NCBI RefSeq assembly: GCF_963921235.1
Contig: NC_086097.1
Span: forward strand, 46,874,001-46,938,000
Length of the DNA: 64,000 nt
Direction of reading: 5' to 3'
Source: Mobula hypostoma
Taxonomy: Eukaryota
Made by a program: the position numbers and the translations under genes. Under the pieces are notes generated by a model. It saw only the letters and a program-made list of their open reading frames with translations, made no database searches and was not told the origin of the DNA. Shown here in pieces: positions 6,795 to 58,005 of the stretch. Numbering within the stretch: the stretch's first letter is position 1; every line of letters starts with the position of its first letter.

Positions 6795-7420
6795 ACGAGA
6801 AAAACTGCAGATGCTGAAAATTCAAGAAACACACAAAAAATGCCGGCGGAACTCATCAGGCCTGGCAGCATTTATGGAAAAGAGTAAACAGTCGACATTT
6901 TGGGCCAAGTCCCTTCATCGGGACTGGAAAGAAAATGAGAAGTTAGAGCAAGAAGTTAGGGGGAGGGGAAGAAGTACAAGATGGTAGGTGATAGGTGAAA
7001 ATGGGTGAGGGGGAGGGTTGAAGTAAAGAGCTGGGAAGCTGATAGGTGAAAGAGATAAAGAGCTGGAGAAGAAGGAATCTGATATGAGACAGTAGACGAT
7101 CATGGAAGAAAGAGGAGCACCAGATGGAGGTGATGGACAGGTAAGGAGATAAGTGAGAGAGGGAAATGGAAATGGAAGTGGTGAAGGGGGCAATTACTGG
7201 AAGTTTGAGAAATCAATGTTCATGCCATCAGGTTAGAGGGTACCCAGACGGAATATAATGTGCTGCTCCTCCAATCTGTGTATGGTCTCCTCTACTACCG
7301 TGATGAGGTCACACTAAGTTTGGAGGAGCAGTACCCTATATTCCGTCTGGGTAGCCTCCAACCTAATGGCATGGCCGACATGTCAGTCCATGGCCTCCTC
7401 TACTGCCGCGATGAGGCCAC
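6795..7420 (-). mobile_element. Degenerate Penelope-like element 3' region / pseudo-LTR with decayed hammerhead
   Basis: Similar to 40546-41160. Core-mutated hammerhead at 6890-6925; short inverted piece at about 7277-7420. Confidence 0.7.
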
Positions 7421-7790
7421 ACTCATACTATAGGAACGATGCGCTTAAGTTGGAGCAAGTGCAAAAGAAAATGACTTACAAGGATATTGCTGAGAGTGGA
7501 GGGCTTGAGATAGAAGTACAGACTGGATATGCTGGGACTGCTTTCCCCTGGAGTGAAGCAGACTGGGGGTGACCATACAGAGCCATATAGACTCATGAAG
7601 GACATGGATAAGATGCACAGTCTTTTTCCAAAGATAGAAGAATCTAAAACTAGAGACCATAGGTTTACATGACATGATATAAATTTAAAAAGAACCCAAG
7701 AGACAAGATTTTCCACAAAGAGTTATGGTTATATGGAATGAGCTGCAAGAGCCGGGTAAAATTTCAGTGTTTAAAAGACACCAATTGCAC
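7420..7790 (+). mobile_element. Degenerate CR1 LINE 3' fragment
   Basis: YYRNDALKLEQVQKK-type RT C-terminal remnant resembling other CR1 copies in the window. Confidence 0.6.
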
Positions 7791-8117: not shown

Positions 8118-8822
8118 ATGACCGACGCCGCATCTGTTCACGCAGTTTCGTTAAAACTGCCAAGCTTCTGGATGCTGCGACCCCACTTATGGTTTGAACA
8201 AGCAGAAGCACAATTCCCCATTCGGCAGATAACTTCGGAGCCCACTCGCTACTACTACGTGCTGAGCTCACTCGACCAGGAGACAGCTGCACAAGTTGAG
8301 GAGTTTATAGAGTCACCCCCGGAGGACAGCAGATACACAGCATTCAAAGCCCTGCTCATAAGGACTTTCAGACTCTCAGGGCGCGAATGAGCACGCCGCT
8401 TAATGCACCTGGATGGTTTGGGAGACAGGCCACTGTCGGTATTAATAAACGAGATGCTGGCCCTGGCTGAAGGACACAAACCCTACCTCATGTTTGAGCA
8501 GGCGTTCCTAGAGCAACTACCCGAGGACATATGCCTGCTGCTGTCCGACGCAGATTTCAGCGACCCCCAGGAGGTGGCGGCCCGGGCAGATGTGCTGTGG
8601 AATGCCAGGAAAGAGAGAGGGGCGTCCATCGCACAGATCACCAAGCCGCGTGCCCAACGGCAGACCAGACCAGGCCCGGCAGCAGAGCCTACAAAACCCG
8701 GCGACAGGAGTGAGGAGCCCAAAGAACAATGGTGCTTCTACCACCAGCGGTGGGGCACAGAGGCCCACCACTGTAGACCACCCTGCAAATTCCCGGGAAA
8801 TGCCAGGGCCAGCCGCCACTGA
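8118..8822 (+). pseudogene. gag: gag pseudogene of Gypsy element
   Basis: AVSLKLPSFW..WFEQAEAQF, LGDRPLS, terminal CFYHQRWG..AHHCRPPC motif; in-frame stop at 8388-8390. Confidence 0.85.
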
Positions 8823-12018: not shown

Positions 12019-15000
12019 TCCTTTCCAATATTTTTATTATTAATTTTACATATAAGAATACAGAGTACAAGAAAAAAAGTATATCAATACATTATACTAA
12101 ATCGCATACAGGTTTCCCCCGCCATCTGAAGGTACAGCGTTCCTATGAAATAGTTCGTAAGCCGAAATGTCGTAAAGCAAAGAAGCAATTACCATTTATT
12201 TATATGGGAAAATTTTGTGAGCGTTCGCAGACCCAAAAATAACCTACCAAATCATGCCAAATAACACATAAAACCTAAAATAACAGTAACATATAGTAAA
12301 AGCAGGAATGATATGATAAATACACAGCCTATATAAAGTAGAAATACTTCTCTACAACGATTGTCTGCACAGATTCTCCATAGCGAAAATCTCACGCAAG
12401 CGCTCTCGGCAGAAAATCTCACGCAAGCACTGTTGGCATAAACGTGCTCTCCAGTAACCTTTAAACTATGAAGCTGCCACATCTACCAAATAACACGTAA
12501 AAATACACAGCCTATATAAAGTAGAAATAATGCATGTACAGTGTAGTATCACTTATCGGAATTGGGAAAACAGCGCTGAGCACACTGATGATAGTGTGTT
12601 AGACTGAGTCGTCACAGGCTGGGTGGTGCAGTGGCCCCCACCCTCTGGGCCGCCGACCCGATACATTGCCGCGAAGAATGCAGCGGTAGCTGGGAGGCAC
12701 CCAACACATCTTTAAGAAAAAAGCCAAAATAAATATTCTAATTAATTAGCAGCTGCCCAGCACATAATTGTTGGCCCAGATCAGTGCTCATTGCCGATTG
12801 TATTGCCTCTGTTCTGGGCCGACAATTACGTGTCGGCAGCACCTAATTAATTAGCATGTTTATTTCGGCTTTTTTCTTAAAGATGTTCTGTGTGCCTTCC
12901 AGTTACTGCTGCATTCTCCGTGAATCGATACAGTATCTGTCTGGGGCCCGGGTGTTGGGGTGGTGGGACACGGGGGTGTCATCTCATCGTCGATCGGGGC
13001 AGGCAGCTCATCTTCTCCTATGACTGCCTGCCTCGATGTCGAAGGTCAAGGTTTGTCGTCTGCTGTGGCTGATGTGGAAGGCTTGCTTGACTGCTGAGCC
13101 TCGCGCATTTTTTTTATCATACAGTTGTTTGTAAGCACTCAAACCATCCTGCAAATATCCCCTAAACCTACGTACCCTTTCAAAATTAAAGTCGTACTTT
13201 ATTATTGCAGCAAAAATCTCACGCAGTTGCTTCACTTTCTGCATTTGGTTGCATTCGGTTTCGATTGTTATCCTTTCCTCTTCCAATTGCATCAGCTCCT
13301 CATCTATCAGTTCTTGGTCATGGGATGCCAAAACCTCTTCAACATCATCTTCGTCAACTTCCACAAGCCAAACTCACTTTGTCCTTGTTTCGTTCACCAC
13401 GATCGAAACGCTTAATTATGTCTAGTTTTACGCTAAGTGTAACACCCTTACTCTTTCAGGTTTTTCCGACACCTTAGAACTCATCTTGCCAACGGCTGCT
13501 CAATGCAACGTGTTAAAGCAAAGCCGTTCCGAATCTGGGGCACAGCGGCTGCTCAGGGCGCGCTGATTTTTTCGCGCGCTGCCTTTCTTCGTAACAGTGA
13601 AAACACCTTCTGAAAGTGAAAACAGCATATTAATGTAGGGCTTTCGTAACAGTGAGGTTTCGTAAAGTGAACGTTCAAAAAGCGGGGGACACCTGTATAA
13701 AGACTCCTTACCCTATATTCATAAAGATTAATTCGTAACATTGAAATATAGTATGTTTATTATATAAAAAATCTAACCCACTACCAAGACCGAAGCTGAT
13801 TAATAAAGAAAAAAAGGAAAAAAAATTATTAGTCATCATCTGTGCTTTAACAGCAAATAAGTTTTGAAAATAATTCAAAAAAGGTCCCCACAACATTAGA
13901 AAGTCTTGACTAGGCTCAGAGATTGAACATCGAATCTTCTCTAAATTTAAACATGACATCACATCACGTAACCATTGAGCGTGAATAAGAGGGGCCGCAT
14001 CTTTCCATTTAAGCAAGAGCGTCCTTCTGGCCATAAGAGACATAAAAGCCAAAATGTGCAAGTCAGATGACTCCAAAATAATATCCTTTCCTCCAACAAA
14101 ACCAAATAAAGCGGTCAAAGGATCAGGCTTGACGTTTACTTTGAAAAGTATCGAGAAAGTTTGAAGTACTTCTTTCCAATATTTTCCAAGACTCGGGTAT
14201 GTCCAAAACATATGAATGAGTGAAGCTTCTCGATTACTACATTCATCACAATACGGAGATATATCTAAATAAAAACAAGACAACTTATCCTTGGTCATAT
14301 GGGCCCTATGGACCACTTTAAATTGTAGGAGAGAGTGGGGGGCACATAACGAAGTGTTAATCAATTTAAAAATTTGATTCCAAGTTTCCTCGGAAATTGA
14401 AGTCTATAAATATTGTTCCCAAAGACTTTTAATTTTATCTGAAGGAACATTTCTCATTCCCAACAGCATATTATAAATATTAGATATAGATCCATTATAA
14501 AAAGGTTTCAAATTAAAAATTACATCTATTAGAAGTTCTTATCAGGACTTTTAGGAAATGTACTTATTTGAGACCGTAAAGATCTCTTATTTGTAGGTAT
14601 CGAAAAAAATGAGTTTTGGGTAAACTATATTTAGTTGTCAGTTGTTCAAACGAAAAGAGACTTCCCTCTATAAACAAGTCCTGAAAGCACTTAATACCTA
14701 ATCTATCCCATTCTTTAAAAGCCGCATCAATCATAGAGGGTTTTTAAAAAATTAGAAAAAATGGGACTGGAAAGAGAAAATCTCAATAAGCCAAAGTATT
14801 TTTGGAATTGTATCCAAATTCTCATAGTGTGTTTAACTACCAGATTATCAGTTAACTTGCTCAGAGACAAAGGAAGTGAGGATCCAAGAAGAGAAATAAT
14901 AGAAAATTTATTAACAGAGTTAGCTTCTTAAAAAACCCACATCGGGCAATCCTCACGATTAATATTATATAACCAAAATGTAAGATTTCTTATATTAACT

Positions 15001-17070
15001 GCCCAATAATAAAATCTAAAGTTTGGTAAAGCTAATCCTCCATTCTTTTTATCTTTCTGAAGATGAATTTTATTTAATCTAGAACGCTTGTTCTTCCATA
15101 TATAAGAAGATATAATAGAGTCAAGAGAATCAAAGAAATATTTAGGAATAAAAATAGGCAATGCCTGAAAAAGATGTATAAATTTAGGTAATATATTCAT
15201 TTTAATAGTTTACTCGGCCAATCAGTGATAACGAAAGAGGCAACCAATTTGATAGCATCCTTTTTACGTGATTCAATAGGGTAAGAAAATTTTCTTTAAA
15301 TAGACGCTTATAGTTACACCTAAGTAGGTAAATTGGTTTCTTACACTTTTAAAAGGAAGGTTAGAATTTGTTGGTATCAAATTATTCAAAGGAAAAAGTT
15401 CACTTTTATGTAGGTTTAATTTATAACCCGAGAATTGGCTAAAACAGGAGAGTAAAGAAAGCACCTGGGGTAACAAAATCTCAACATTAGAAATAAATAG
15501 CAGCAGATCATCAGCGTACAGCGAGAGTTTGTGAATAGTGTCTCTCCTTAAGATACCGGTGATATCATTAGATTCTCGAAAGGCTAAAGGTTCTAAGGCC
15601 AGATCAAAAAGCAAAGGGCTCAATGGACAGCCTTGTCCAGTGCCATGGTGAAGCTTAAATAGCTTGGAATTATGAAAATTAGTGATAACCCTAGTGGAAG
15701 GAGCTAAATAAAGTAATTTAATCCACTGAATGAAAACAGGTCCAAAATTGAATTTTTCTAAAGTTTTAAATAAATAATTCCATTCAACTCTGTTGAAAGC
15801 TTTCTCAGCATCCACGGATACCACACATTCCGATATCATGTTAGAAGGAGAATAAATAACATTTAATAATCGACAAATATTAAGGTGAGAATATCGATTT
15901 TTGATAAATCCAGTTTGGTTATCGGAAATGACAGATGGTAAAATATTTTCAGTCCTCTGGGCCAAAACTTTAGATAGGATCTTAGTATCAACATTAAGTA
16001 AAGAAATTGGTCTATAAGAAGACATTCAGTTGGATCCTTATTCTTTTTAAGGATAAGCGAAATGGAAGCCTCATAAAAAGATTGAGGGAGTCTGCCCAAC
16101 TTGAATGAATCCGAAAAAACTGAACATAAGTGAGGTATAAGCAGTGAGGAAAAGATCTTGTAAAACTCTCCAGAAAATCCATCTGGACCCAGAGCTTTCC
16201 TCAAATGTAATGAGTGCACAGCCTCAACAATTTCCTCAGAAGAAATAGGTTGTTCCAACAACTTTCTGTTGTCAGCAGAAATTGTAGGAATGTTTAGTTG
16301 GTCTAAAAAAATGTTCATTACAGTGTTATCCTTAGAAGATTCAGAACCATAGAGTTTAGAATAAAATGCTCTAAAAGTATCATTTATTTCTAAATAATCA
16401 GTTGTCCTATCACCATTAGCTTTGCACATTTTTATAATCTGCTGTTTAGCTATAAAGGTTTTAATTTGATCAGCCAATAATTTACCTGTTTTATCTCCAT
16501 GAACATAAAATTGACTTTTATCTTTTAGGAGTTGGGTTTCAATTGGATAGGTTAAAAGGAGATCATATTTAGTTTTAGTTTCAACACGTCTTTTATATAA
16601 GGCAGGTTCTGGAGCCAAGGCATACTCTTGGTCTAATTGTTTCAGCTGATTAGCTAAATCACTTCTCTCTTTATTAGCTTTTCTCTTAAATACTTGCAGT
16701 ATAAGAAACAACTTGTCCTCTAATATACATCTTAAAGGCATCCCATCTGATAAAACTAGAAGTCTCCTTTAATGTACTCCCTTCAAAAAAAGAGTAATTT
16801 GTCTCTCCATAAACTTTAAAAAATCTTTATCAGATAACAAAGTTAAATTAAATCGCCAAAACCTATTTGTTTGAAGAAGACCAGGGAGATTTAAAGATAG
16901 GAGCACAGGAGTGTGATGTGAGACAGCAATCTCTTTTTATTCACAGGATCGAACTGATAGAATCATTTGGCTATCAATAAAAAAATAATCAATCCTGGAA
17001 TATGTATGATGGACATGAGAGAAAAACCAATATTCCATGTCTACTGAATGAGAAAAACGCCAATCATCAA
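12019..17070 (-). mobile_element. 5'-truncated L1-clade LINE (ORF2 pseudogene), interrupted in its 3' UTR by a Tigger derivative
   Basis: 11-bp TSD TGAATATTTTA (12008-12018, 17071-17081). Motifs YSRIDYF, KALGPDGFSGEFYK, YRPISLLNVDTKIL, QGCPLSPLLF, LYADD and C-terminal CDEC..LIHMFW; several frameshifts. Confidence 0.92.
12109..13695 (-). mobile_element. Internally deleted Tigger/pogo-like DNA transposon
   Basis: TA-flanked TIRs CAGGTTTCCCCCGC / GCGGGGGACACCTG; acidic transposase C-terminal remnant EVDEDDVEEVLASHDQELIDEELMQLEEE. Same end sequence as 38100-38359. Confidence 0.88.
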
Positions 17071-24203: not shown

Positions 24204-24483
24204 TTATGCAGACAATAATTTTCTGTCCATTCCCAGCCATTTATAACTAGGTTAAAATTAAAATGGATTCAATAGTTCCATAGTATAATTACTATACTAA
24301 CTTTCCTCAGCAGCAATATACAGTATTACCTTACCAACTCACTCAATTTGTTGATTGGAGGATCAGCTGTTTTCAATGAATTTGTAAGACTAAATAATCC
24401 CCTCTCTGTAAGATCCAACAGTATGGTAGATTTTCAACAGACCACCTAAAGGCAAAAGAGCATTAAAGACAAGATTAGGAAAT

Positions 24484-25503
24484 AGAAACATAGAAAACCT
24501 ACAGCATAATACAGACCCTTCAGCCCACAAAGTTGTGCCAAACGTGTCTCTACCTTAGAAATTACTAGGCTTACCCATAGCCCTCTATCTTTCTAAGCTC
24601 CATGTACCTATCCGCCTCCACCACTGTTGCCAGAAGCCCATTCCATGCACTCACCACTCTCTGAGTATAAAACTTACCCCTGACATCTCCTCTGTACCTA
24701 CTCCCCAGCACCTTAAACCTGTGTCCTCTTGTGGCTACCATTTCAGCCCTGGGAAAAAGCCTCTGACTATCCACACGATCAATGCCTCTCATCATCTTAT
24801 ACAAGTCTATCAGGTCACCTCTCATCCTCCGTCGCTCCAAGGAGAAAAGGCCAAGTTCACTCAACCTGTTTTCATAAGGCATGCGCCCCAATCCAAGCAA
24901 CATCCTTGTAAATCTCCTCTGCACCCTTTCTATGGCTTCCACATCTTTCCTGGAGTGAGGCGACCAGAACTGAGCATAGTACTCCAAGTGGGGTCTGACC
25001 AGGGTCCTATATAGCTGCAACATTACCTTTCGACTCCTAAATTCAATTCCACGATTAATGAAGGCCAAAACACCGTATGCCTTCTTAACCACAGAGTCAA
25101 CCTGCGCAGCTACTTTGAGCGTCCTACGGACTCGGACCCCAAGATCCCTGATCCTTCACACTGCCAAGAGTCTTAACATTAATACTATATTCTGCCATCA
25201 TATTTGACCTACCAAAATGAACCTCTTCACACTTATCTGGGTTGAACTCCATCTGCCACTTCTCAGCCCAGTTTTGCATCCTATCAATGTCTCACTGTAA
25301 CCTCTGACAGCCCTCCACACTATCCACAACACCTCCAACCTTTGTGTCATCAGCAAACTGACTAACCCATCCCTCCACTTCCTCATCCAGGTCATTTATA
25401 AAAATCATGAAGGGTCCCAGAACAGATCCCTGAGGCACACCACTGGTCACCGACCTCCATGCAGAATATGACCCATCTACAACCACTTTTTGCCTTCTGT
25501 GGG
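24484..25503 (-). mobile_element. 5'-truncated CR1 LINE
   Basis: [41 protein letters not shown]-type tail. Confidence 0.9.
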
Positions 25504-26257
25504 ATCCACAAAGCAATGTCCCCTTGGGTGATAATAGAGAAGCACAAATCTGGAGAAGGATACAAGACCATCTCAAAGGCACTGAACATACCTCAGAACT
25601 CAGCAGTCCATTGTGAAAAAGTGAAAAAATATATGAAACCACAGCCACACTGCCTAGGTAATGCTGCCAAACTTAGTGGCTGGAGAAGAAAGGCACTTGT
25701 AAGAGAAGCTACAGTGATGGCAACAATCACTCTGAACAAACTGCAGACATCAGTGGCCGGAGATGAAGTTCATGGCTCCACAATCTCTAAGGCCTTGCAC
25801 AAAACGGGTATTGATGAAAGAGTGGCTAGGAAGAAGTCCTAGCTAAAAAAAAAACCATATCATTGCCCATAAATATTTTGCCAAACATCACTTAGAAGAT
25901 ACTGTATAAATGTGGAAGAAGGTCTTCTGGTCAGATGCCACTGAAGTGGAACTTTTTGGCCTCAACACCAAGTAGTATATGTGGCATATTGCTGTCCGCT
26001 GCCACGCACCAGCTACTGTCATCTGGCACAGCTTGAGCAATTTTGCAAGGTGAAATGGGCAAATCTTGCTCCAATACATTGTCCAAAGCTAATAGAGACT
26101 TATACATTATTATGTACCCCGTAACTGGGTTACCAAACCAGCAGAAGTGGATCACTCAGTTGGAGTCTGGATTACTAGAACTAAGAAAGTTTTATTAAAG
26201 AAACAAGCAACACAGTACTCTAATCAAAAGGATAATGAATGCAACAGTTCAGCAATG

Positions 26258-26584
26258 ATGCCCATTCTCTCGGTCCCCCCCCCTTGTCTTTCTTCCCGGA
26301 CCTCCTGTCCCATGATCCTCTCGTATCCTCTTTTGCCTATCACCTGTCCAGCTCTTGGCTCCATCCCTCCCCCTCCTGTCTTCTCCTATCATTTTGGATC
26401 TCCCCCTCCCCCTCCAACTTTCAAATCCCTTACTCACTCTTCCTTCAGTTAGTCCTGACGAAGGGTCTCGGCCTGAAACGTCGACTGCACCTCTTCCTAC
26501 AGATGCTGCCTGGCCTGCTGCGTTCACCAGCAACTTTGATGTATGTTGCTTGAATTTCCAGCATCTGCAGAATTCCTGTTGTTT
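26258..26584 (+). mobile_element. Penelope-like pseudo-LTR fragment
   Basis: Near identical to 42277-42560 and to the reverse complement of 40546-40870; ends GAATTCCTGTTGTTT. Confidence 0.9.
26451..26486 (+). ncRNA. Minimal type I hammerhead ribozyme motif (core intact)
   Basis: AGUC-CUGACGA-AGG(GUCUCGG)CCU-GAAAC-GUC/GACU: conserved core, stem I AGUC:GACU, stem II AGG:CCU, palindromic loop-less stem III ACGU. Predicted cut after 26482. Confidence 0.8.
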
Positions 26585-26586
26585 GC

Positions 26587-28749
26587 GTCATAATTCTGTC
26601 GACTGTCTTCCTCACCCCAAAATGTCCACTGAGGGGTACTTTGTGGGCCAGGTTAAAAATCTCGCCCCTATAAATTTTCGGCACTACCACCTGGTGTACA
26701 ACTCCCCACTCCTCATCTGCAGGCACAGTATGTGGTCTCCATTTCCTCATTAGTACTCCCTCCTTTACATAATAGCCGACTGGTTCCCTTTTCAATTCTG
26801 CGTCAGAGAGAACTGTCTCTGCCAAACCCATCAGCTCCTCGTCTCGCTCTTGTGCCTGTGTAAAGTCCTTCCTGGCTAATGCTAAGTCTGCCTCAGCCCC
26901 CTCACCTCCTCTTGTTCCACCACGCTCCTCCTTTTCACCTTCTACCCTCTCCTCGTACAAGGCTGGCAGAAACGTCTCAGCTAGCTGTATCTCAGCATTT
27001 GCAGCTTCCTCGACATCTGTCGAGTTATTGCATAAACGGGGTAAACCTGCAAGTCCATGGGTGGGGCCTCAATGCTGGCAGGCTGACTTGTCAATCTCAC
27101 GGCTGGGAACACAATTCCCCCCCGCGAGGTCATTACCGAGCAAGACTTCCACGCCTTTCATCGGTAATTCGGACCTCACCCCGATCGTGACTAGTCCAGA
27201 GACCAGGTTGCTTTGTAAGTGTATCTGGTGCAAAGGCATGGCTTCCGTCCCTTTTCCAATGCCTTTGATCACGCTAACCTCCCCAGTCTCGGTCTCTGAA
27301 CTAAAGTCTAAAACACTCCTCAAGATCAGTGACTGACAAGCTTCCGTGTCTCTCCAGATCCGTACTGGAATTGGGTTTAACCCCTCTTTCACCGACACCA
27401 ATCCGGCCGAGATAAACCTCTCGCGCCCTTCCTGAACCTTATCCGACCTCCCCTCTCCTGGAGGTTGGTTTGCCGGCTCAATACAGCCAGTCGGAACCCC
27501 CATTTTTCCTTTTCCCGTCTCCTTCTTTGGGGCAAAGCACCTGGACGCAAAGTGTCCGACTTTCCCACAATTATAACAGACGACCCCAGGAGACTTCCTA
27601 CCAGACTGCTCCCGGTCTACCTTATCCTTCTCACTAGTCCCCGGCTTACTTACTGACCTTTCTGGCGGACTCTCCCCGCCGTCCTGACGTCCCTTCTGGT
27701 AGCCTTTACTCGGGGCAAACTTCATTTTATGCGTCAACGCATACTCATCCGCTAACTTAGCAGTTGCGGCTAACGTGACTGCCTCTTTCTCATCTAGGTA
27801 GGGTCTCATACCCTCAGGGACACAACCTTTAAACTGCTCAATCAGGATCAGCTGTAGCAGTCTGTCATAATCCCCCTCTACCCCCTTCGAGGCGCACCAA
27901 CGCTCACAATACGTCTGCATCTCACGGGCAAACTCTAAATACGTGCGGTCCCACTGCTTCCTCGCATTTCGAAACCTCTGCCGGTATGCCTCCGGGACCA
28001 ACTCATAAATCCTGAGGATGGCCTCTTTCATCACCTCATACCTCTGGGTATCTTCCGCGGACAAAGCTGAGTAAGCTTGTTGGGCTTTCCCTTTCAGTAC
28101 ACTCTGAAGCAAAACAGCCCACTTATCCCTCGGCCAGTCCTGACTTGTAGCAACTTTTTCGAAATGGAGAAAGTACCAATCCACGTCGGTATCATCAAAT
28201 GGGGGAACCAGCCTAACCTCCTGGGTTGCCCGGAACCCTCCACCTTGGTTCGGCACGGGCCCCTGCTCTGCCCTTATCCTTAACTTCTCCAGCTCGAATT
28301 CCCTTTCCCTCTGTTTCTCCTCCCGCTCCCACTGTCTCTCTCTCTCCCTCTCTCTCTCCTGCCTTTCTAACTCTCTCTTTCTCTTGCCTTTCTAACTCTC
28401 TCTCTTGCCTTTCTAAGTCTCTCTCCTTCTCTTGCCTTTCTAACTCTCTCTCCTTCTCTTCTCGCTCCAACTGCCGTACCCGGAACTCGTGCTCGAGTCT
28501 CAGTTTTTCAAGCTGCACCTGTACCGCGTCTCCGGCAGGTTTTTCAATAGACACCACCTCCAGCTCGCCTTGGAGAAACACACCTTTAGATACATAGTGG
28601 TTTACGATAGCTCTGTGTATCTCCTGTCTCCTCATTGTCGACTTCCCCTTAGCAAGATTCAATTGTTTGGCCACAGCTACCAGTTCCGATTTCCTGGCAT
28701 CCTCTAATGCCTCCAAGGTCGGCGCCTTTATAATTTCCTCAGCCTCCAT
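26587..28749 (-). pseudogene. gag: gag-pro-(int) pseudogene: coiled coil, SCAN-like capsid, CCHC knuckle, protease, integrase zinc-binding start
   Basis: LVPPFDDTDVDWYFLHFEKVA, ELVPEAYRQRFR, LILIEQFK, CYNCGKVGHFASRC, RDTEACQSLIL, LLGNDL, LAHKVPLSGHFGVRKT; two frameshifts. Confidence 0.85.
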
Positions 28750-29949
28750 TTCTGCTGTTTGTCTTTTCTTTCTTTCGGGAATTTTGACCCAATCAATTTA
28801 CTCCGTCCCAAATTTAGCGTTCAAAATCGCAGACGAGAACCCCACCTATGTTACGTACCCTGTAACTGGGTTGCCAAACCAGCAGAAATGGATCACTCAG
28901 TTGGAGTCTGGATTACTGGAACTAAGAAAGTTTTATTAAAGAAACAAGCAACACAGTACTCTAATCAAAAGGATAATGAATGCAACAGTTCAGCAATGAT
29001 AAACATACATGTACACAGAATTCAGATAACAGGATCAATCAAGCTCTATCATTGTCTAGGGGTAAATGACCAGTTTCAAAGTGACGCAAAGTTCAGTTCA
29101 ATTTAGTTCAGTTCAGTTCGCAGTAATCGCTGCCGTGGGAGATGGACAGTGTGGGGGAAGGAGACAGAGAGCAAAAACGAATGAATATTCAAGGCTTCCA
29201 CACAGACCTTCGCAGTCAGCTTTTGGGCGAGTCCTTTGTGATGTCATCTGAGGTCACCGACCGTGACCCCTCCGTTTCCAGATACGATCGTTTCTCTGCG
29301 GTGAACCCAGCACCCAGGCAAGGGTGGACACACACCAGGTTCCCGCCGATCATGCCTTTCCATCCTGTGCGTCTATGGCCCGATACTTCCCACCGACTTG
29401 TGAGAGACGCACCTCTTCCAGGGTCTTGTTACCTCGGGTGTCGTGTGTGTCCTGCCTTAGTGAACCTGTCCCGTTTTTATCCCCCTGCTGGGGTATCGCC
29501 TGTCCATCACTACCAACAGTTCAGGGTTCAAAGGGGGAGCCGATCTTGACAGCTCTCCTTCCTTCATTAACATCTCCAAATGCTGCTCCATTGTTTTCCT
29601 TATCTCTCTCTCTCCTGAAGACAGGTGGCAGACCAACTGCTGATTCCACTGGTGCCAGCCCAGGCCAGCTACATCGTGTATTCTTGTCACAGCATAAAGA
29701 CCTTTGGCTGCAATAGCTTCAAGAGGTGGTTCAACTAAGTACTGAGCAAAGGGGGATACTTTTGAACTGCTGAAATTTCAATTGTTGAATTTTTAGTTTT
29801 TCATGTTTTATAATTGTCCATGTTTTTGGGCTCTTCTGTGAAAAAGGAGCATGTGATTCACAAATAAAAATTCTCAGTTAAATTGATCATAATCCCTGGT
29901 CGTAATACTCATATCCCTGAACAAAGGTTTGGGACTGAATACTTTTCCT

Positions 29950-35548: not shown

Positions 35549-37074
35549 AGTATAAAGTGGAAAATTTTAAAAATTAGTCAAATCCGAACAGTAGGGGAAA
35601 AACTACTTGTTTTTCAACTGAGAAAAAAGGTTACAAATTCTGAGCATGAAGGCCTGAAAATTATAAACTTCCTGTTTTTGAATGAATCATAGTTTAGAAA
35701 TTCAAACTGAATATAGGATACGAGTATAAAATCTTGAATACTTTCCTTGCAGTTGATTCTGCGTCTTCTTCAAGGCACACATAAAATGTTTTCCTTACTC
35801 ACTGAAAAGTTAAAGCATGGATTTACTAGCCAGTGATGAAGGATAAAAGCTGGGGCCTCACACCTCCCATGCATCGAGAGTCCTGAATTCCAGTTTCACC
35901 TGAGTGTAACTCTCAAGTCACCACAGCTGACACTGATTTGTCATGATGTCCAATGGGAAGTTTAGATATCCTCATATCTCCTGGCATTTTGGTTGTACAA
36001 TCTGTACTTGAGCATGCACCAGTTCAATGCGGCAGAAGTCTGCTGAACTCATTGATTTTAATGGAAAGATATGGCCCTGAAGACAACAGCACTTCAAGTA
36101 AATTTCCTTTTTATTTTGTTTAATTGATTTTCAATTGTGTGCATGTTTCTAAGATTTTAGTTTATGCCTTTATAGCTTAAATCATATTTAACTGTATTTA
36201 TATATAAATAATGTCTGATAGCTTTTGAATACTGTATTTACAAATACCATTCAATTTAAACTGCAGTCTTGACAGTCAGTTAGCCTGGGGTCACAGATTC
36301 ACTCCCTGTTAAGGAAAACCAGGATGGGTAGAATCTGTCTTGTTCAGAGGCCATGTCTGGTTCTCTCCAATCAGCTGGGAGTAAGCATTGAAATGGAAGT
36401 CTGGTGACACATTACAAGAATCAGCATGCTCCTAGAACAAATGACCAGAAATCTAAGACAGTTCATCAGACCAGTGAAAATAATCAACCTACTAGGTTAT
36501 AATCATAAGACCTACTAGGTTATAACCATAAGACCAATCGACATAGGAGCACAATTAGGCCATTTAGCCCATCAAGTCTACTCCACCATTTAATCGTGGC
36601 TGATCTATTTCCCTGTCATAATGAGATGAGGTATTATGGTACTCTCACATAAATGCACTGTTATGGTTCTAAAAGCAGTGGACCAAAGAACTAGTGATGT
36701 TTCTTGAGCCTACTCAACCATTCAATTTGATTATTGCCAATCCACTGTATATCATAGCTCTAATCAATCATCTTTCTTTCATGCTAATAATCTATTTTTT
36801 TAAAGTTGCAGTAATAAAGATTGTTTACGAATCCACACTAAGTTGCTCATCTAGATAATTTGTCCTTCAGTTTCATTTCCTCTGTGTGGAGAAGCAGACA
36901 TCATATATTTGGCATGAAACAAATGGGGAAAAGATGCCAAATTCTATGGAACATGACTGTTCAACAGAGCAAGCGTATTATAATTTGATTTCAGAGCCCA
37001 ATTAGATGCAGACTGTGCCTGCAGAAATTTCTTTCTCAATCAGTGATATAGCAGCAAAGAAGTTGAGAAAGTAA

Positions 37075-38359
37075 ACTGTCTGCAGAATTGGATTGTTCAA
37101 CTTTCAAAACGCTTCCCTGCACTCTTGACTCAACAAAGCGTGGTGTTCAGTTAAGTTTTCTTATACTTAAGGAGAGATCAGTCAGTTTTTTTAATAAGCT
37201 GAAACAGAAAGCACTGGACGATGGTGATGAAAGTGTTGCAAAAGTGGAATTTAAAGGTAGTCATGGGTGGATTGATTGGTTTCTGAGGCGAGGGCAGCTT
37301 CATAGTTTAACGTTTACCGGAGAGAGTGCTTCAGCTGATAATGAAGCTGCCAAAAAGTTCCCAGCAGAACTGAAGAAAATAATTACAGAAGGTGGTTATT
37401 CGTATAAGCAAGTGTTTAACTGTGACGAAGCTGCAATTTATTGGAAAAAATTGCCGAGCAAGACATTTATTTCGATAGAAGAAAAGCAGGCTAAGGAACA
37501 CAAGGCATTGAAGGACAAGTTTACCCTAATGCCTATTATTAACATCACTGGTGATACTGTCCTTAAGCCTCTACTAGTGCACCATTCAGAAAATCCGAGG
37601 GCACTTAAAGGCATTGAGAAGAAAACACTTCCTGTTGTGTTTCGTTCACAATCCAAGTGGTTGGAATATCCTAAAGTGCTTTTTACTGAGTACGAGTGGA
37701 TACGTTAGTCCTTTTGTTGAAAAATACTGTAGAGAAAATAACCTCGATAATAGGTGTCTTGTGATTGTGGATAATTGTGCTGCTCATCCACCTGGCATTA
37801 CTGAATATGGCGGTAACATTCGTGTTGTGTTCTTACCGTCGAATACGGCATCGTTGCTGCAGCCGTGAGGCCAAGGCCTAATAGCCACAATTAAGGCTTA
37901 CTACACGCAAAATGTGAAGCGTTTTATTGTAAGTACCATTGACAGAAAGGGCAACTCCAAAGCGTCTTTGCGAGAGATCTAGAAAGAATACAGTGTAAAA
38001 CTGGCAATCGCCAACATTGGAGATGCTCTCGATAGGTTAACAGCCTCTGAGAAATGGCGTTTGGAGGAAACTGTGTCTTTCCGATTCTGGTAAGTGAAAC
38101 TACACTGTACATACATTATTTCTATTTTATATAGGCTGTATATTTATCATATCATTCCTGATTTTACTATATGTTACTGTTATTTTAGGTTTTATGTGTT
38201 ATTTGGCATGATTTTGTAGTTTATTTTTGGGTCTGGGAACGCTCGAAAATTTTTCCCATATTAATAAATGGTAATTGCTTATTCACTTTACGACATTCCG
38301 GCTTACGAACCATTTCATAGGAACGCTCTGCTCTACCTTCGGATAGCAAGGGAAACCTG
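37075..38359 (+). mobile_element. 5'-truncated Tigger/pogo transposase pseudogene with right TIR
   Basis: FKGSHGWIDWF, GESASAD, QVFNCDEAAIYWK, IVDNCAAHP, FLPSNTASLLQP*; ends GGGAAACCTG-TA. Confidence 0.9.
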
Positions 38360-39744: not shown

Positions 39745-40500
39745 ACTTTTCTTAATACATATGAATGATTTCAACTTGGATGCTCAGAGCACCATTTTGA
39801 CAAATGCAGATGACACAGAACTCGGAGAAATAGGGTAGGTGAGGATGATAAAAATAGACTTCAAGGAGATATAGTCAGGATGACTAAATGAACAGATAGG
39901 TGGCACATTGATCATAATACATTGAAGTCCAAAGTATTATATTTCAGAAGTAAAAATGAGAAAAAGCAATATAAATTAGAGTGAATAATTCTAAAAGGAG
40001 TGCAAATACAGAGAGCTTTGAGGATTATGTGTATAGATCACTTTAAAGTGGCAAGGCAGGTTCAGAAAGTGGGTGGAAAAAGTACACAGGTCAGGGTTTA
40101 TAAATGGAAGCAGAGATTACAAGAACATTGAATATATGACGGAATTTTATATAGCCTTGCTTCAATCAAGCTTTTGGAAAACTTTGAAGGTTATGGAGAG
40201 AATGCAAAAGAGAATGGACAAAATTATTCTGAGAGACTTGGGCTGGATATGTAGACCATGAAAAACAGAAGATACAACAGTGCAGCTCTGTATAGGCTCT
40301 TCGGCCCCATGATGTTCTGCTGTTGCGCTGACCTAATCTACTCCAAGATCCTGGGTTATTCTCAAATAGATGGAAAGGAAGAAATTGAAAGAAGATCTTT
40401 CAGAATCATAAAGACTTTCATCATGATCTTTTAGAATCAGGAAGAGTAGAAAGAGAAAAATGTTGCTGGCTATGTGGATAGTGTGATAAGAACTAGGAAC
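39745..40500 (+). mobile_element. Old degenerate CR1 RT fragment
   Basis: ADDTEL and MERMQKR remnants. Confidence 0.55.
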
Positions 40501-40545
40501 ATATTAATCACTCTCTTTCTTGAAAACAATCACTACAATCAATAC

Positions 40546-42560
40546 AAACAACAGGAATTCTGCAGATGCTGGAAATTCAAGCAACACACATCAAAGTTGC
40601 TGGTGAACGCAGCAAGCCAGGCGGCATCTCTAGGAAGAGGTACAGTTGATGATTCAGGCCGAGACCCTTCGTCAGGACTAACTGAAGGAAGTTAGTAAGA
40701 GATTTGAAAGTGGGAGGGGGAGGGGGAGATCCAAAATGATAGGAGAAGACAGGAGGGGGAGGGATGGAGCCAAGAGCTGGACAGGTGATTAGCAAAGGGG
40801 GTATGAGAGGATCATGGGACAGGAGGTCCGGGGAGAAAGACGGTGGGGGGGGAACCCAGAGGATGGGCAAGGGGTATAGTCAGAGGGACAGAGGGAGAAA
40901 AAGGAGAGTGAGAGGAAGAATGTGTGTATAAGAATAAATAACTGATGGGGTACAAGGAGGAGGTGGGGCATTAGCGGAAGTTAGAGAAGTCAATGTTCAT
41001 GCCATCAGGTTGGAGGCTACCCAGAAGGAATATAAGGTGCTGCTCCTCCAACCTGAGTGTAGCTTCATCTTTACAGTAGAGGAGGCTGTGGATAGACATG
41101 TCAGAATGGGAATGGGATGTGGAATTAAAATGTGTGGCCACTGGGAGATCCTTTCTCTGGCAAGCTTATTAACTTTGCCTCCAACTTTCACCCTGCCCTC
41201 AAGTTTACCTGGTCCATTTCCGACGCCTCCCTCCCTTTCTAGATCTTTCTGTCTCTGTCTCTGGAGACAGCTTATCCACTGATGTCTACTATAAGCCTAC
41301 TGACTCTCACAGCTATCTGGACTATTCCTCTTCTCACCCTGTCTCTTGCAAAAATGCCATCCTCTTCTCGCAATTCCTCCATCTCCGCCGCATCTGTTCT
41401 CAGGATGAGGCTTTTCATTCAAGGACAAGGGAGACGTCCTCCTTTTTTAAAGAAAGGGGCTTCCCTTCCTCCACTATCAACTCTGCTCTCAAACGCATCT
41501 CCCTCATTTCACGCACATCTGCTCTCACTCCATCCTCCCGCCACCCCACTAGGAATAGGGTTCCCCTGGTCTTCACCTACCACTCCACCAGCCTCCGGGT
41601 CCAACACATTATTCTCCGTAACTTCCGCCACCTCCAACGGGATCGCACCACTAAGCACATCTTTCCCTCCCCCCACCCCCCCCCGCTTTCCGCAGGGATC
41701 ATTCCCTACACGACTCCCTTGTCCATTCGTCCCCCCCATCCCTCCCCACTGATCTCCCTCCTGGAACTTATCCGTGTAAGCGGAACAAGTGCTACACATC
41801 CCTTACACTTCCTCCCTTACCACCATTCAGGGCCCCAGACAGTCCTTCCAGGTGAGGCGACACTTCACCTGTGAGTCGGCTAGGGTGATATACTGCGTCC
41901 GGTGCTCCCGATGTGGCCTTCTATATATTGGCGAGACCCGACGCAGACTGGGAGACCGCTTTGCTGAACACCTACGCTCTGTCCGCCAGAGAAAGCAGGA
42001 TCTCCCAGTGGCCACATATTTTAATTCCACATCCCATTCCCATTCTGACATGTCTATCCACGGCCTCCTCTACTGTAAAGATGAAGCCACACTCAGGTTG
42101 GAGGAACAACACCTTATATTCCGTCTGGGTAGCCTCCAACCTGATGGCATGAACATTGACTTCTCTAACTTCCGCTAATGCCCCACCTCCCCCTTGTACC
42201 CCATCCGTTATTTATTTTTATACACACATTCTTTCTCTCACTCCTTTTTCTCCCTCTGTCCCTCTGACTATACCCCTTGCCCATCCTCTGGGTTCCCCCC
42301 CTCGTCTTTCTCCCAGGACCTCCTGTCCCATGATCCTCTCATATCCCCTTTGCCAATCACCTGTCCAGCTCTTGGCTCCATCCCTCCCCCTCCTGTCTTC
42401 TCCTATCATTTTGGATCTCCCCCTCCCACTTTCAAATCTCTTCCTAACTCTTCCTTCAGTTAGTCCTGACGAAGGGTCTCGGCCTGAAACGTGGACTGTA
42501 CCTCTCCCTAGAGATGCTGCCTGGCCTGCTGCGTTCACCAGCAACTTTGATGTGTGTTGC
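40546..42560 (+). mobile_element. 5'-truncated Penelope-like element (Neptune-type) with inverted upstream pseudo-LTR
   Basis: RT thumb (LPFLDL, VYYKPTDSHSYLDYSSSHP, SQFLHLRRICS), Cys-rich linker, GIY-YIG endonuclease (VIYCVRCSRCGLLYIGETRRRLGDRFAEH). 40546-41160 is the reverse complement of the 3' region. Confidence 0.92.
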
Positions 42561-43207
42561 ATGATAGCAACCTCCCTGTTTGCTGGAGAAATTGTGGAAA
42601 TCAAAATGCAAACCATTATCATATTTTCTGAGAATGCCCCGTTATCAAAGACTATTGGAGTGGGATACACAAGACATCTTTAAATGTGAAACACCCTTAG
42701 AAAGTAAGACCATATATTTTGGGTATGTACCTCAAGAATGGTTGAAAAGAGATAAATATTTAATGAATATACTGCTGGTGGCTGGTAAAAAGACTCTTAC
42801 CAGGAAATGGTTATCACAGGAGAGCCCAACTTTAAATGTATGGATGGAAATTACAATGGACATTTACAAAATGGAGAAGATAACAGCATGTTAATCATAA
42901 GTTGGAACAATTTGATTCATACTGGGAAAAATGGTTTAACTACATAACACCTCATAGGCCTGATTTTATTCTCACAAGTCAATGAATATGTTGTAAAAAA
43001 AATCACTCCCTACTTTGTACATAGATCTTTTCTTTTGATTGTTCTTTCTTTCCTCTCCTTTCTATAAGTGTATACCTCAGATAAATATTATGTGGAGATT
43101 TGTGACAAATATGACTATATGATATATATGTACAGTATCTGAAATACATCTTATGGAAAGTTTTGTTTGATGATGAACTTCGATAAAAAATAAATTACAA
43201 AAAAAAA
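42561..43207 (+). mobile_element. L1/Tx1-clade 3' fragment with poly(A)
   Basis: HYHIF*ECPVIKDYW, LLVAGKKTLTRKW..PTLNVW; AATAAA followed by an A-run ending at 43207. Confidence 0.8.
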
Positions 43208-44683: not shown

Positions 44684-44829
44684 ACATTTACACCACATCT
44701 GCAGTTTAATGTCATTAAAGTCTAGTTGGATATTAAATCATTCAAATCACCAGTTACCCTCTATTTTGTTACAATGAATGAGCTGTAATATTTTGCTGTT
44801 ATAGTGAAATCTGACATTTAAAAACTACA

Positions 44830-44905
44830 AGCAACGCACATCAAAGTTGCTGGTGAACACAGCAGGCCAGGCTGCATCTCTAGGAAGAGGTGCAGTCGAC
44901 GTTTC
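44830..44905 (-). mobile_element. 76-bp Penelope pseudo-LTR fragment with TSD
   Basis: AACTACA at 44823-44829 and 44906-44912; on the minus strand the insert begins GAAACGTCGACTG. Confidence 0.8.
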
Positions 44906-45490
44906 AACTACACCTTTCTGTTAAATATACATAAAACTGAAAATTGTCTTTCTTTAAAAATTGCATTCTTTTACAAAAATCTGAATTCTGTATTACACTT
45001 TTTGATTCCAAAAAATGCTTCTACATTCGATCAAACTTCTCATGAAAGACTCATGAAAAAGGGAATTGTCTCCTTAAAGTAAAATTCGTGCTTATTCATT
45101 CAAAATGTATCCTGTTACATTTAATCAAAATGAAATTCCACTCTTTTTGCATGTTATCAGATTGCAGGTTCCTTTGATATCTTTATTAACTATGTCTTCA
45201 TTTTTGTCATTATGAAAATTTTAAATTATTCGCAGTATATCTTTTTATCTAAGCCACTAAATAGTTAATATAACAGCTTCTCACTTATTGTACTAAATAC
45301 CCTGAATATTTCTCAAACCCATGCCAGTTCTGCTAACCAATTGTTAATTTTTTTCTCTCTAAAAGAGAAGTGAGTAAGTGAAAATTCCTGACAGGAATTG
45401 AGCTAGGGATAACTACTTCAAATCTGTGCTGGGTTTTTACACTTAGATGGTGAATTTTTGGAAATATTACTAAGGATTCCCCTTACGTAC

Positions 45491-48029: not shown

Positions 48030-51000
48030 AGGAATAAAGTGAGGTGGAGGATAAATGCGTAGCTGATGGAGTGGAGCAGGGGGCAGGGATTCAGATTTCT
48101 GGATCATTGGGACCTCTTTTGGGGCAGGTGTGACTTGTACAAAAAGGACGGGTTGCACTTGAATCCGAGGGTGACCAATATCCTGGCAGGGAAGTTTGCA
48201 AAAGCTATTGGGAGAGTTTAATCTAGGATTGCTGGGGGGTGGGAACCAAACTGAAGAGACGAAGGAAGGGGTGGTTGACTCACAAATAGAGAAAGCTTGC
48301 AGGCAGTGTAACAGGGAGAATAGGCAGGTGGTAGAGAAGGGATGCGCTCAGACTGATGGTTTGAGATGTGTCTATTTTAATGCAAGAAGCATCATGAACA
48401 AAGCGGACAAGCTTAGAGCGTGGATCAGTACTTGGAGCTACAATGTTGTGGCCATTACAGAGACCTGGATGGCTCAAGGGCAGGAATGGTTACTTAGGAG
48501 TGCCAGGCTTTAGATGTTTCAGAAAGGTCAGGGAGGGAGGCAAAAAAGGTGGGGGCATGGCACTGCAGATCAGAGATAGAGTCACGGCTACAGAAAAGGA
48601 GGAAGTCATGGAGGGATTGTCTACTGAGTCTCTGTGGGTGGAAATTCGGAACAGGAAGGGGTCAATAACTTTACTGGGTGTTTTTTATAGACCTCCCAAT
48701 AGTAACAGGGACGTCGAGGAGCAGATAGGGAGACAGATTCTGGAAAGGTGTAATTATAACAGGGTCGTTGTGGTGGGAGATTTTAATTTCCCTAATATCC
48801 ATTGGCATCTTCAGAGAGCATGGGGATTAGATGGGGTGGAGCTTGCTAGGTATATTCAGGAAGGTTTCCTGACACAGTATGTAGATAAGCCTACAAGAGG
48901 AGAGGCTGTACTTGATCAAGCATTGGGAAATGAACTTGGTCTGGTAAACAACAGGAATTCTGCAGATGCTGGAAATTCAAGCAACACATATCAAAGTTGC
49001 TGGTGAACACAGCAGGCCAGGCAGCATCTCTAGGAAGAGGTACAGTCGACATTTCAGGCCGAAACCCTTCGTCAGGACTAGCAGGTGTCAGGTCTCTCAT
49101 TGGGAGAGCATTTTGGAGATAGTGATCATAATTCTATCTCCTTTACCATAGCACTAGAGAGGAATAGGAACAGACAAGTTAGGAAAGCGTTTAATTGGAG
49201 TAAGGGGAAATATGAAGCTATCAGGCAGGAACTTGGAAGTATAAATTGAGAACAGATGTTCTCAGGGAAATGTACGGCAGAAATGTGTTCAGGGGATATT
49301 TGCGTGACGTTCCAATAGGACAGGGAAAGGATGGTAGGATACAGGAACTGTGGTGTACAAAGGCTGTTGAAAACCTAATCAAGAAGAAAAGCTAAGCTTA
49401 CGAAAGATTCAAAAAGCTAGGTGATGATAGAGATCTAGAAAATTATAAAGCTAGCAGGAAGGAGCATAAAAATGAAATTAGGAGAGCCAGAAGGGACCAT
49501 GAGAAGGCCTTGGCAGGCAGGATTAAGGAAAACCCGAAGGCATTCTACAGGTATGTGAAGAGCAAGAGGATAAGATGTGAGAGAATAGGACCAATCAAGT
49601 ATGACAGTGGAAAAGTGTGTATGGAACCGGAGAAGATAGCGGAGGTACTTAATGAATACCTTGCTTCAGTATTCACTACAGAAAAGGACCTTGACGATTG
49701 TAGGAAAGGCTTACAGTGGGCTGAAAAGCTTGAGCATATAGACATTAAGAAAGAGGATGTGCTATAGCTTTTGGAAAGCATCGTTGGATAAGTCACAAGG
49801 ACCGGACGAGATACATCGCAGGCTACTGTGGGAGGTGAGGGAGGAGATTGCTGAGCCTCTGGCAATGATCTTTGCATCATCAATGTGAACGGGCGACATT
49901 CTGAAGGATGTCTCAGATGTTGTTCCCTTATTCAAGAAAGGGAATAGAGATAGCCCAGGAAATTACAGACCAGTGAGTCTTACTTCAGTGGTTGGTAAGT
50001 TGATGGAGAAGTTCCTGAGAGGCAGGATTTATCAACATTTGGAGAGGCATAACATGATTAGGAATAGTCAGCATGGCTTTGTCAAAGGCAGGTCATACCT
50101 TACGAGCCTGACTGAATTTTTTGAGAATGTGACTAAACAAATTGATGAAGGTAGAGCAGTAGATGGATTTCAGCAATGCATTTGATAAGGTACTCCATGC
50201 CAGGCTGTTTGAGAAAGGAAGCATGGGATCCAAGGGGGCCTCGCTTTGTAGATCCAGAATTGGCTTGCCCACAGAAGGCAAAGAGTGGTTGGAGATGGGT
50301 CATATTCTGCATGGAGGTCAGTGACCAGTTGTGTGCCTCAGGGATCTGTTCTGGGACCCATCCTCTTTGTGATTTTTATAAATGACCTGGATGAGGAAGT
50401 AGAAGGGTGGGTTACTAAGCTTGCTGATGACACAAAGGTTGGGGGTGTTGTGGATAGTGTGAAGGGTTGTCAGAGATAACAGTGGGACATCGATAGGATG
50501 CAGAACTGGGTTGAGAACTGGCAGATGGAGTTCAACCCAGATAAGTGTGAAGTGGTTCATTTTTGTAGGGCAAATTTGAAGACAAGAATATAATATTAAT
50601 GGTAAGACTCTTGGCAGTGTGGAGGATCAGCGAGATCTTGGGGTCCGTGTCCATAGGAGCTCTCAAAGCTGTTCTGCAGGTTGACAATGTTGCTAAGAAG
50701 GCATATGGTGGGTTGGCCTTCATAACTGTGGGATTGAGTTCAAGAGCCGTGAGGTAATGTTAAAGCTATATGAGACCTTAGTTAGACCCCACTTGGAGTA
50801 CTGTGTTCAGTTCTGGTCACCTCACTACAGGAAGGATATGGATACTATAGAGAGAATGCAGAGGAGATTTACAAGGATGTTGCCTGGATTGGAGAGCATG
50901 CCTTCTGAGAATAGGTTGAGTGAACTTGGCCATTTCTCCTTGGAGCGATGGAGAATGAGAGGTGATCTGACAGAGGTGTATAAGATGCTAAGAGGTATTA

Positions 51001-57039: not shown

Positions 57040-58005
57040 ACTATCTGCAACAGCCATCTTAATCTTTTGGTTGCATGTCATTCTAACTCGCTTCCCACTC
57101 CTGCACTGGCATGTCTATCCCCTAAAGGGGCCAAACGCAAATTCGAATAACAGTTCTTATAGAATTTGGGTCACTCATAACTCAAAGGCACGAACAGTGA
57201 ATTTTCCAACTTTGGGTAACTCACAACCCAATTCCTCCAACACACATTCATCTGTCCACCTCATTTTATTCTCACTTTATTCACCTCTCCAATCCCTCCC
57301 CTCACCTGTATCATCTAGCCATCATCCCTTCCCCATCTGATTCAACCCATCATCGACCAGTCTTTCCCCTGATACACCAACAAACGTTCCTGTTCGCTTT
57401 GTCCTGATGCTGGGGCTTGACACAAAGTGTTGACTTTCATCTTTTACCTCCACAGATCCAAGCATTCTTCCAGCATTCTGTTCATTGTTACAGGCAAATC
57501 TTTGGTATAATCACAGTGCGCTCTTCACAAAAAAAGTGTGGAGTTTCAGATTTCCATATTCTGATTCTTAAATCCCGCCCCCTCCCCTCTTCTTCTAATC
57601 CCCACTCTGGCCTTTTGCCTCTTCTGATCTGCTTATCACTTCCCCCTGGGACCCCTCCTCCTTTGCTTTCTCCTATGGTCCACTCTCCTCTCCTGTCACC
57701 GATTCCTTCTTCTCTAGCCCTTTACTTTCCCACCTACCTGGCTTCACCTATCACCTTCTAGTTAGCCTCCTTCCCCTCTTCCCACCTTTTTAATCTGGCA
57801 TCTTCCCCTTTCCTTTTCAGTCCTGAAGAAGGGTCTCGGCCCGAAATACTTGTGTGTGCTGCTCTGGATTACAGGCATCAGCAGATTTTTTTCACATTTG
57901 TAATGTTAACTGTTTATTCATTTCCATAGATGCTGCCCAACCTACTGAGTTCCTCCAGCATTTTGGGTGTGTTGCTTTGAATTTCCAGCATCTGCAGACT
58001 CCCTG
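57040..58005 (+). mobile_element. Two tandem degenerate Penelope 3'/pseudo-LTR remnants
   Basis: Pyrimidine-rich tracts; decayed hammerheads near 57401 and 57819; downstream GATGCTGCC..GCATCTGCAGA. Confidence 0.65.

Follow-up and report, generated by a model that had tools for sequence, protein, structure and literature searches.

The hammerhead motif and its terminal repeat

Analysis of the window, the whole 64-kb stretch of ray DNA under study, revealed a minimal type I hammerhead motif within a solo terminal repeat (pseudo-LTR, pLTR) of a Penelope-like element (PLE), composed of a pyrimidine-rich 3' region, the hammerhead, a downstream hairpin region and a tail (Table 1). The full core, the GUC triplet, stems I and II and the loop-less ACGU stem III, which an earlier note had reported at 26451-26486, were all confirmed, the CUGACGA and GAAA boxes together with GUC corresponding to the CUGANGA/GAAA core with an NUH triplet. 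The type I topology comprises a stem I of 4 bp plus a U.G pair and a stem II of 3-4 bp. The closed and looped helix III of canonical monomer-active type I hammerheads is absent; lacking loop 3, the motif has an ACGU palindrome that lets a double hammerhead form at a computed energy of -9.5 kcal/mol. In stem II, the register with an extra A and a G10.1.U11.1 pair (4 bp, -2.5 kcal/mol) is favoured over that with an A-U pair (3 bp, -2.2 kcal/mol), and the extra nucleotide characteristic of minimal hammerheads (min-HHRs), A26462, is thus present in the slightly stabler register; it is clear in the older copies and in the metagenomic relative L001 described below. The G10.1-C11.1 pair, a highly conserved trait that lies outside the published descriptor, is replaced by G.U in the focal copy.

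Table 1. Coordinates of the hammerhead, the repeat copies and the neighbouring mobile elements in the window.
Feature	Position	Strand	Remarks
Minimal type I hammerhead	26451..26486	+	Boxes read off the letters, descriptor scan, folding
Stem I	26451-26454 (AGTC); 26483-26486 (GACT)	+	5' strand; 3' strand
Core	26455-26461 (CTGACGA); 26475-26478 (GAAA)	+	
Stem II region	26462-26474	+	13 nt; extra A 26462, stem 26463-26474
Stem III	26478-26481 (ACGT)	+	Loop-less palindrome
GTC triplet	26480-26482	+	C17 = 26482; predicted cut 26482/26483
Solo pLTR, 5'-truncated, young subfamily	26259..26585	+	No ORF; 92% to 40545-40869, 91% to 42278-42564
Optional tail, ~33 bp	26553..26585	+	Present in 26k, 40k and 49k copies, absent in 42k and 44k copies
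Parent Penelope-like element, 5'-truncated, frameshifted	41162..42564	+	RT C-terminal part, linker, GIY-YIG, pLTR
GIY-YIG endonuclease of parent	about 41885-42110	+	PF01541, E 7.2e-5; stop 42176-42178
Hammerhead of parent's pLTR	42462-42497	+	GUG triplet
Inverted 5'-truncated copy joined to parent	40545..41161	-	93.6% over 590 bp to 41985-42564
79-bp copy	44828..44906	-	Starts inside hammerhead (26474-equivalent); GAAA, triplet and stem I 3' strand only
135-bp copy	48946..49080	-	5' start = 5' edge of hammerhead; reaches tail end
Older-subfamily copy	6805..7439	-	Endonuclease remnant, internal inversion
Older-subfamily copy	57737..58005	+	Hammerhead from 57819; C11.1 kept
Broken Gypsy-type LTR retrotransposon around focal copy	26110..29691	-	SCAN and zinc-knuckle gag, integrase zinc finger
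Second Gypsy-type element	7804-10817	+	92% identical LTRs, DUF7041 gag, RNase H, integrase; apparently without most of RT
Tc1/mariner and DDE transposon remnants, LINE-like fragments	25411-25842, 37067-37708, 13708-16768, 24475-25672, 48000-51318		LINE-like fragments judged from translations

The descriptor scan proposed in the earlier note matched the focal motif: the type I descriptor gave two matches in the 64-kb window (26455 on the forward and 49075 on the reverse strand). In 60 first-order Markov resamples, the loose descriptor gave a mean of 0.2 matches (maximum 2), and the strict loop-less form matched in none of the 60. The Rfam search returned no hammerhead family among its 15 matches at E<=10, which we attribute to the dependence of the Rfam models on helix III. 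Pattern scans gave no matches in viral contigs and one in metagenome contigs (L001, 401-437 on the reverse strand of MOXH01004682.1), a minimal hammerhead with the same core and ACGU palindrome, a GUU triplet, a 6-bp stem II and a TGTC/GACA stem I; its layout is that of the focal motif, with different stems and on an unrelated contig.

The identification of the repeat as a Penelope pLTR with a minimal hammerhead, also made earlier, proved right: in the parent element the repeat lies 284 nt behind the GIY-YIG ORF (41.8-42.2 kb), the location typical of min-HHRs, and tblastn matches to the RT side and then to the EN side follow each other in the order of a C-terminal GIY-YIG endonuclease. Among 178 candidates the parent endonuclease gave 14 hits, with identities of 94% for a Mobula hypostoma protein and 90% for a Hypanus sabinus protein. 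According to PMC8557442, a CX2-5CxxC linker between RT and EN marks Neptune/Nematis and is absent in Penelope/Poseidon. A C-x4-C-x2-C linker is intact in P0003, a relative protein with 94% identity, and the parent in the window retains its first two cysteines, the third being lost at the frameshift; this single linker motif, used in place of a tree, points to a Neptune/Nematis-type parent. The insertion traits of EN+ PLEs were likewise found, namely 5' truncation, an inverted adjacent copy (40545-41161) and two ends 33 bp apart; inverted truncated arms and a tail of 30-40 bp that may be present or not have been described as the layout of PLEs (PMC8557442), and a tail of this kind is also reported in PMC11167929. 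No intact tandem master element was detected within the 64-kb window.

The self-comparison of the window (copy-to-copy E values of 1e-133 to 1e-6) yielded seven pLTR copies, two of which fit the descriptor; core and palindrome are both intact only in the focal one. The focal repeat, 327 bp long, shares 91-95% identity with four other young copies and 70-80% with two older ones. Copies end either at the equivalent of 26552 or ~33 bp beyond it. The five relatives listed earlier were each as described. In particular, the hammerhead at 49044-49079 (reverse strand) has an intact core and an AUGU stem III, that at 42462-42497 (forward) is the parent's, and that at 40644-40679 (reverse) carries A15.1>U (GAAT), G16.2>A and G1.1>A. 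Among the older copies, 6890-6925 (reverse), in which C11.1 is kept, carries U4>C and G12>A, and the hammerhead from 57819 (forward) is interrupted after GAA by 57 nt similar to the tail region, which probably reflects a partial tandem or a deletion join. The copy at 44828-44906 (reverse) and the parent ORF at 41.2-42.2 kb are additions to that list. The cut site is the starting point of none of the seven copies, and three of them begin upstream of it, at or within the motif, which fits uncut RNA templates. The tandem array of retrozymes, in which two or more successive units each have a full hammerhead, was not found, the self-comparison of the window showing no tandem units. At 7187-7439, an internal inversion in the endonuclease remnant produces a long hairpin with spurious Rfam miRNA matches.

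The focal pLTR lies antisense within a broken Gypsy-type element; at the junction that it occupies, most of the 3' LTR and the remainder of pol are absent. In this element, gag is directly followed by protease-like and integrase zinc-finger parts, an order which we take to be Gmr1-like, and a relative of its LTR occurs at 5558-6436. A second GTCGAC palindrome at 26599-26604, 113 nt behind the motif in the flanking retrotransposon, is probably due to chance. Repeat intervals drawn by hand cover about 60% of the window. Outside these intervals, a Pfam search of 128 frames of at least 55 aa, a length below which short exons could escape, revealed no host exon, the matches being two of LINE type and three weak ones below the cut-off. 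A G-alpha-like stretch at 40169-40399 on the reverse strand (Pfam E 0.0038, PDB E 0.047) was taken as a chance match among the 128 frames, a decayed pseudogene piece being less likely.

Conservation among copies and between subfamilies

The earlier note had named an excess conservation of core nucleotides over flanks across copies as one part of its test. Among inserted copies this excess was not found; between subfamilies the motif was better kept than its flanks. In one DNA run (X1), the depth-weighted frequency of G8>A was 8.4% among the rows listed, with some X1 differences uncounted, and on the same basis the changes at the stem III and cut-site CpGs reached 7.7, 9.3, 7.6 and 8.3% and that at one flank CpG 12-15%. 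G8 thus decays like other CpG sites, which suggests that the inserted copies are unselected. Between young and old subfamilies, a comparison comprising two old copies plus the loose ends of contigs, motif identity was 29/36 and 31/36, and flank identity 45/66 and 43/66 on the downstream side and 64/111 on the upstream side (for the second old copy the upstream value, 36/111, is spoiled by gaps). Catalytic bases and palindrome, mutation-prone CpGs included, were kept. Two of the six X1 loose-end peaks listed coincide with the motif edges, 26451 (642 contigs) and 26487 (513 contigs), and the consensus letters beyond them resemble the flanks of the older subfamily. Both patterns are what selection on master elements combined with neutral decay of their copies would predict; the comparison of core and flanks among inserted copies was mis-aimed, because selection would act on the master.

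Position 11.1 (26474) is U in all five young copies and in ~81% of X1 depth, and C in both older copies and in 19% of X1 depth. This change is of the CpG type and is fixed in the young subfamily at a normally conserved pair. Since G10.1-C11.1 is reported as highly conserved in min-HHRs (PMC4209133), U11.1 may make the ribozyme of the young subfamily weaker.

The very large number of genomic copies expected earlier is plausible. The window holds seven copies in 64 kb, or ~110 per Mb, and 130,021 X1 contigs matched a 371-bp stretch of the repeat. Their summed depth is not a copy number, and the genome-wide figure of at least ~1e4 copies (summed depth 1.3e7, single-locus depth 15-30, overlap up to 31-fold) is to be taken as a rough bound only. 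Further X1 loose-end peaks lie at 26584, 26585 and 26588, with AT-rich flanks, and correspond to the long tail ends. Among the six loose-end places listed, there was no peak of 5' ends at 26483 that could represent a fossil of cleavage. A 5'-end hotspot at 26450-26455, formed by a window copy, several back-joints and the largest loose-end peak, was discarded as a candidate signal, being indistinguishable from older-subfamily flanks. The X1 joints onto 26451-26455 include several back-joints, among them a 35-nt head-to-tail duplication of the hammerhead (three contigs). The existence of local tandem motifs elsewhere in the genome is thereby indicated, and any active dimers would most probably be found among them.

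In a run guessed to be RNA and derived from another sample than X1 (X9), 7,114 contigs contained the repeat; the raw-read runs X21 and X22 gave two and zero reads with it, respectively. Within 26339-26499, A>G changes occurred at 16 places in X9 versus five in X1, seven sites being 26-54 times commoner than in the DNA run, and T>C changes, as expected from an antisense arm, were not raised (four places in each run). The A>G excess, restricted to the sense strand, probably reflects A-to-I editing of pLTR duplexes by ADAR, with the caveat that alleles can mimic editing in contigs from a guessed-RNA run of a different sample. Two further X9 signals were rejected. The lower frequency of G8>A (0.62% versus 8.4% in X1) does not indicate selection, as the non-core position 26396 drops alike (ratio 0.11 versus 0.07), and the X9/X1 depth ratio (0.005-0.013 upstream, 0.024 in the motif and 0.045-0.066 downstream) changes gradually and is contig-based, which disqualifies it as a sign of cleavage.

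Folding, host transcripts and the reading of the motif

Taken alone, the 36-mer is predicted to fold into an inactive hairpin pairing the core with the triplet (-10.0 kcal/mol), the double hammerhead lies 10.5 kcal/mol above two such hairpins, and the probability of stem I is ~0 in a context of 160-330 nt, although nearest-neighbour energies omit tertiary contacts and Mg2+ and understate any hammerhead fold. The best same-strand pair in the window, the 26k and 42k copies, is 16 kb apart, has a dimer of -9.8 versus -20.4 kcal/mol for two hairpins and carries a GUG triplet in its 42k partner. Copies on opposite strands form duplexes of -225 to -249 kcal/mol, which would bury the motif, and since both descriptor-fitting copies lie on opposite strands, no transcript of the window carries two in sense.

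The earlier suggestion that scattered intronic copies pair in host pre-mRNA, cut it and thereby affect host genes found no support in these values, and we regard it as very improbable. It could draw on the density of the copies, on the presence of the repeat in X9 and on the depletion of Xenopus retrozymes from introns (bioRxiv 10.64898/2026.07.22.740005). In addition, two Mobula RefSeq models, P0001 and P0002 (STARD3NL isoform, uncharacterised protein), hold the pLTR frame 26448-26585 in sense through the hammerhead; copies can therefore sit in predicted mRNAs, but gene models spanning the motif imply transcripts that are apparently uncut. Several Hypanus and Mobula models also include the PLE ORF. 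Besides the unfavourable dimers and the antisense duplexes, the lack of selection for or against G8 among genomic copies and the lack of a host exon in the 128 non-repeat frames of the window speak against it. So do the published data: dimers cleave weakly (PMC4209133), and the Anolis RNA-seq described in PMC11167929 has no reads ending at the cut site. Cutting of host transcripts at scale would represent a new cost of PLEs, and the evidence runs against it. Quite unlikely as well is a picture in which ~10^4 to 10^5 or more copies in ray genomes include, as the most successful, a young subfamily with a fixed 10.1-11.1 wobble, those in host transcripts are quieted by self-hairpins, antisense pairing and ADAR editing, and a small subset, either head-to-tail duplicates lying close together or copies to which the element's protein is bound, cuts host RNA. 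Were it true, the series of subfamilies together with the range of 5' ends would amount to a natural mutational scan of the role of the PLE hammerhead. Conserved intronic hammerheads exist in amniotes, and the focal copy is the only one of seven with core and palindrome both intact, yet its domestication as a host ribozyme is extremely improbable: it sits inside a broken LTR retrotransposon, is 91-95% identical to the other young copies, lacks helix III and adopts another fold in context, and, assuming independence, ~70% of young copies would keep the four CpG-linked sites by chance alone. The probability that the resemblance to a hammerhead is itself accidental is close to nil. The missing Rfam match and a folding z-score of -0.37 are what an accident would give, and the failure of the strict descriptor in all 60 resamples, the published position in a PLE pLTR and the preservation of the layout despite altered stems, both in L001 and in the older copies, contradict it.

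An unlikely but more serious alternative is that the motif of the young subfamily is kept mainly as a non-catalytic signal (a protein-binding structure, a promoter or splice acceptor, or an overlapping frame), catalysis being weak or lost. It would account for C11.1>U throughout the young copies and in most X1 depth, and accords with the unchanged in vitro insertion of hammerhead mutants (PMC11167929) and with Naiad PLEs, which spread without a hammerhead according to PMC8557442; moreover, one frame through the motif is open. The region directly 5' of stem I (26430-26452) contains a CTAAC-like motif, a pyrimidine tract and a CAG, with matching places in the 40k, 42k, 6k and 57k copies, and the end of an intron is similarly placed in D. 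virilis Penelope (PMC4209133). The acceptor-like CAG lies at 26446-26448; the Hypanus model P0006 continues beyond the last residues of the ORF, and of the two Mobula proteins, P0002 enters the repeat at a CAG-compatible phase and P0001 two codons earlier. An intron running from the ORF end to the hammerhead was nevertheless rejected for the young subfamily, as neither of two young copies has a GT donor there, and the tract itself belongs to an extended pyrimidine-rich stretch; the CAG is retained as a candidate acceptor. The alternative is further weakened by the retention of catalytic bases, palindrome and mutation-prone CpGs between subfamilies, and by the fact that G.U or A-U still closes stem II.

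Judged by its sequence, 26451-26486 is a real minimal hammerhead of a Penelope-like pLTR and an example of a described class. The account that we consider highly probable as a whole is that it represents the terminal-repeat hammerhead of a Neptune/Nematis-type PLE in a myliobatiform ray, carried here by a dead, 5'-truncated insertion. By analogy with published work on PLEs, active masters would occur in tandem and be transcribed as multimers. A single motif, which without loop 3 cannot close stem III, is computed to fold into the inactive hairpin, and two motifs on one tandem RNA would swap strands through ACGU/ACGU and two stem I helices. A slow cut after GUC, probably assisted by the RT-endonuclease protein of the element, would then trim the element RNA. 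Reverse transcription would start at two sites ~70 and 100 nt downstream, giving rise to the optional tail, on RNA left uncut at that motif, and early stops would scatter short pLTR copies. Inserted copies would decay neutrally, mainly at the four CpGs of the motif, and solo copies would be inert. Cleavage, assistance by the protein and a role in transposition are, for the ray motif, what we infer from the related elements.

Relation to described Penelope-like hammerheads

Min-HHRs are reported from pLTRs of metazoan PLEs (Xena, Poseidon and Neptune) in fishes, coelacanth (about 4,000), Xenopus (about 9,000) and reptiles (PMC4209133). That study already covers the class, the logic of its dimers and its occurrence in Neptune elements of fishes. 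The statement of the earlier note that such motifs cleave mainly as dimers agrees with it, in that monomers were uncut and dimers cleaved at a low level; Lunse et al. are cited for dimer cleavage in the review PMC6765202. Like the min-HHRs of Cervera and De la Pena (2014, PMC4209133), the ray motif is of type I, lacks loop 3, is palindromic at 15.2-16.2, has a helix I of 4-5 bp and an extra nucleotide between 9 and 10.1, and occurs mostly as dispersed single copies from truncated PLEs. It differs from them in the young subfamily, where G10.1.U11.1 takes the place of G-C and helix II has 4 bp. At about 110 per Mb, the density in the ray window points to copy numbers above the counts given there.

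Our literature search, to which subscription literature was mostly external, found no published test of a ray or shark PLE hammerhead, in line with the earlier view of a known class and a lineage lacking such a test; the supplements of PMC4209133 and of the retrozyme preprint may list chondrichthyan motifs. What is new is the addition of the ray lineage to the described class, with no visible host role. Insertion in vitro does without the PLE hammerhead (PMC11167929) and Naiads lack it (PMC8557442); numerous copies from several subfamilies in one genome would offer cheap material for testing its role.

The ray hammerhead shares with that of the PAc (Poseidon) element of Anolis carolinensis (Frangieh et al., 2024, PMC11167929) its place in the pLTR, AT-rich targets and, as the copies suggest, the position ahead of two RT start sites, by which an optional tail is defined, and the use of uncut RNA as the template. 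However, the Poseidon clade lacks the Cys linker, and the PAc ORF starts at stem II, where the ray motif has no in-frame ATG. PAc is cleaved only in the presence of the element's protein, cleavage is not needed for insertion and no RNA-seq reads end at the site. Like the ray motif, the hammerheads of non-LTR retrozymes are of type I and derive from PLE pLTRs (bioRxiv 10.64898/2026.07.22.740005; see also PMC7229834). One of nine Xenopus dimers was active, and hammerhead retrozymes are reported from one chondrichthyan genome (bioRxiv 10.64898/2026.07.22.740005). Retrozymes form tandem arrays, whereas the window copies are dispersed monomers or attached to a PLE ORF, the few head-to-tail joints in X1 lying elsewhere. 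Finally, truncated 3' copies of lizard Penelope form dsRNA that is heavily A-to-I edited (Porath et al., 2017, PMC5625713). Unlike in the lizard, editing in the ray is suggested by contigs of the guessed-RNA run, from a different sample than the DNA and on the sense strand only; as in the lizard, an A>G excess (X9) goes along with copies of the 3' part of the element in both orientations.
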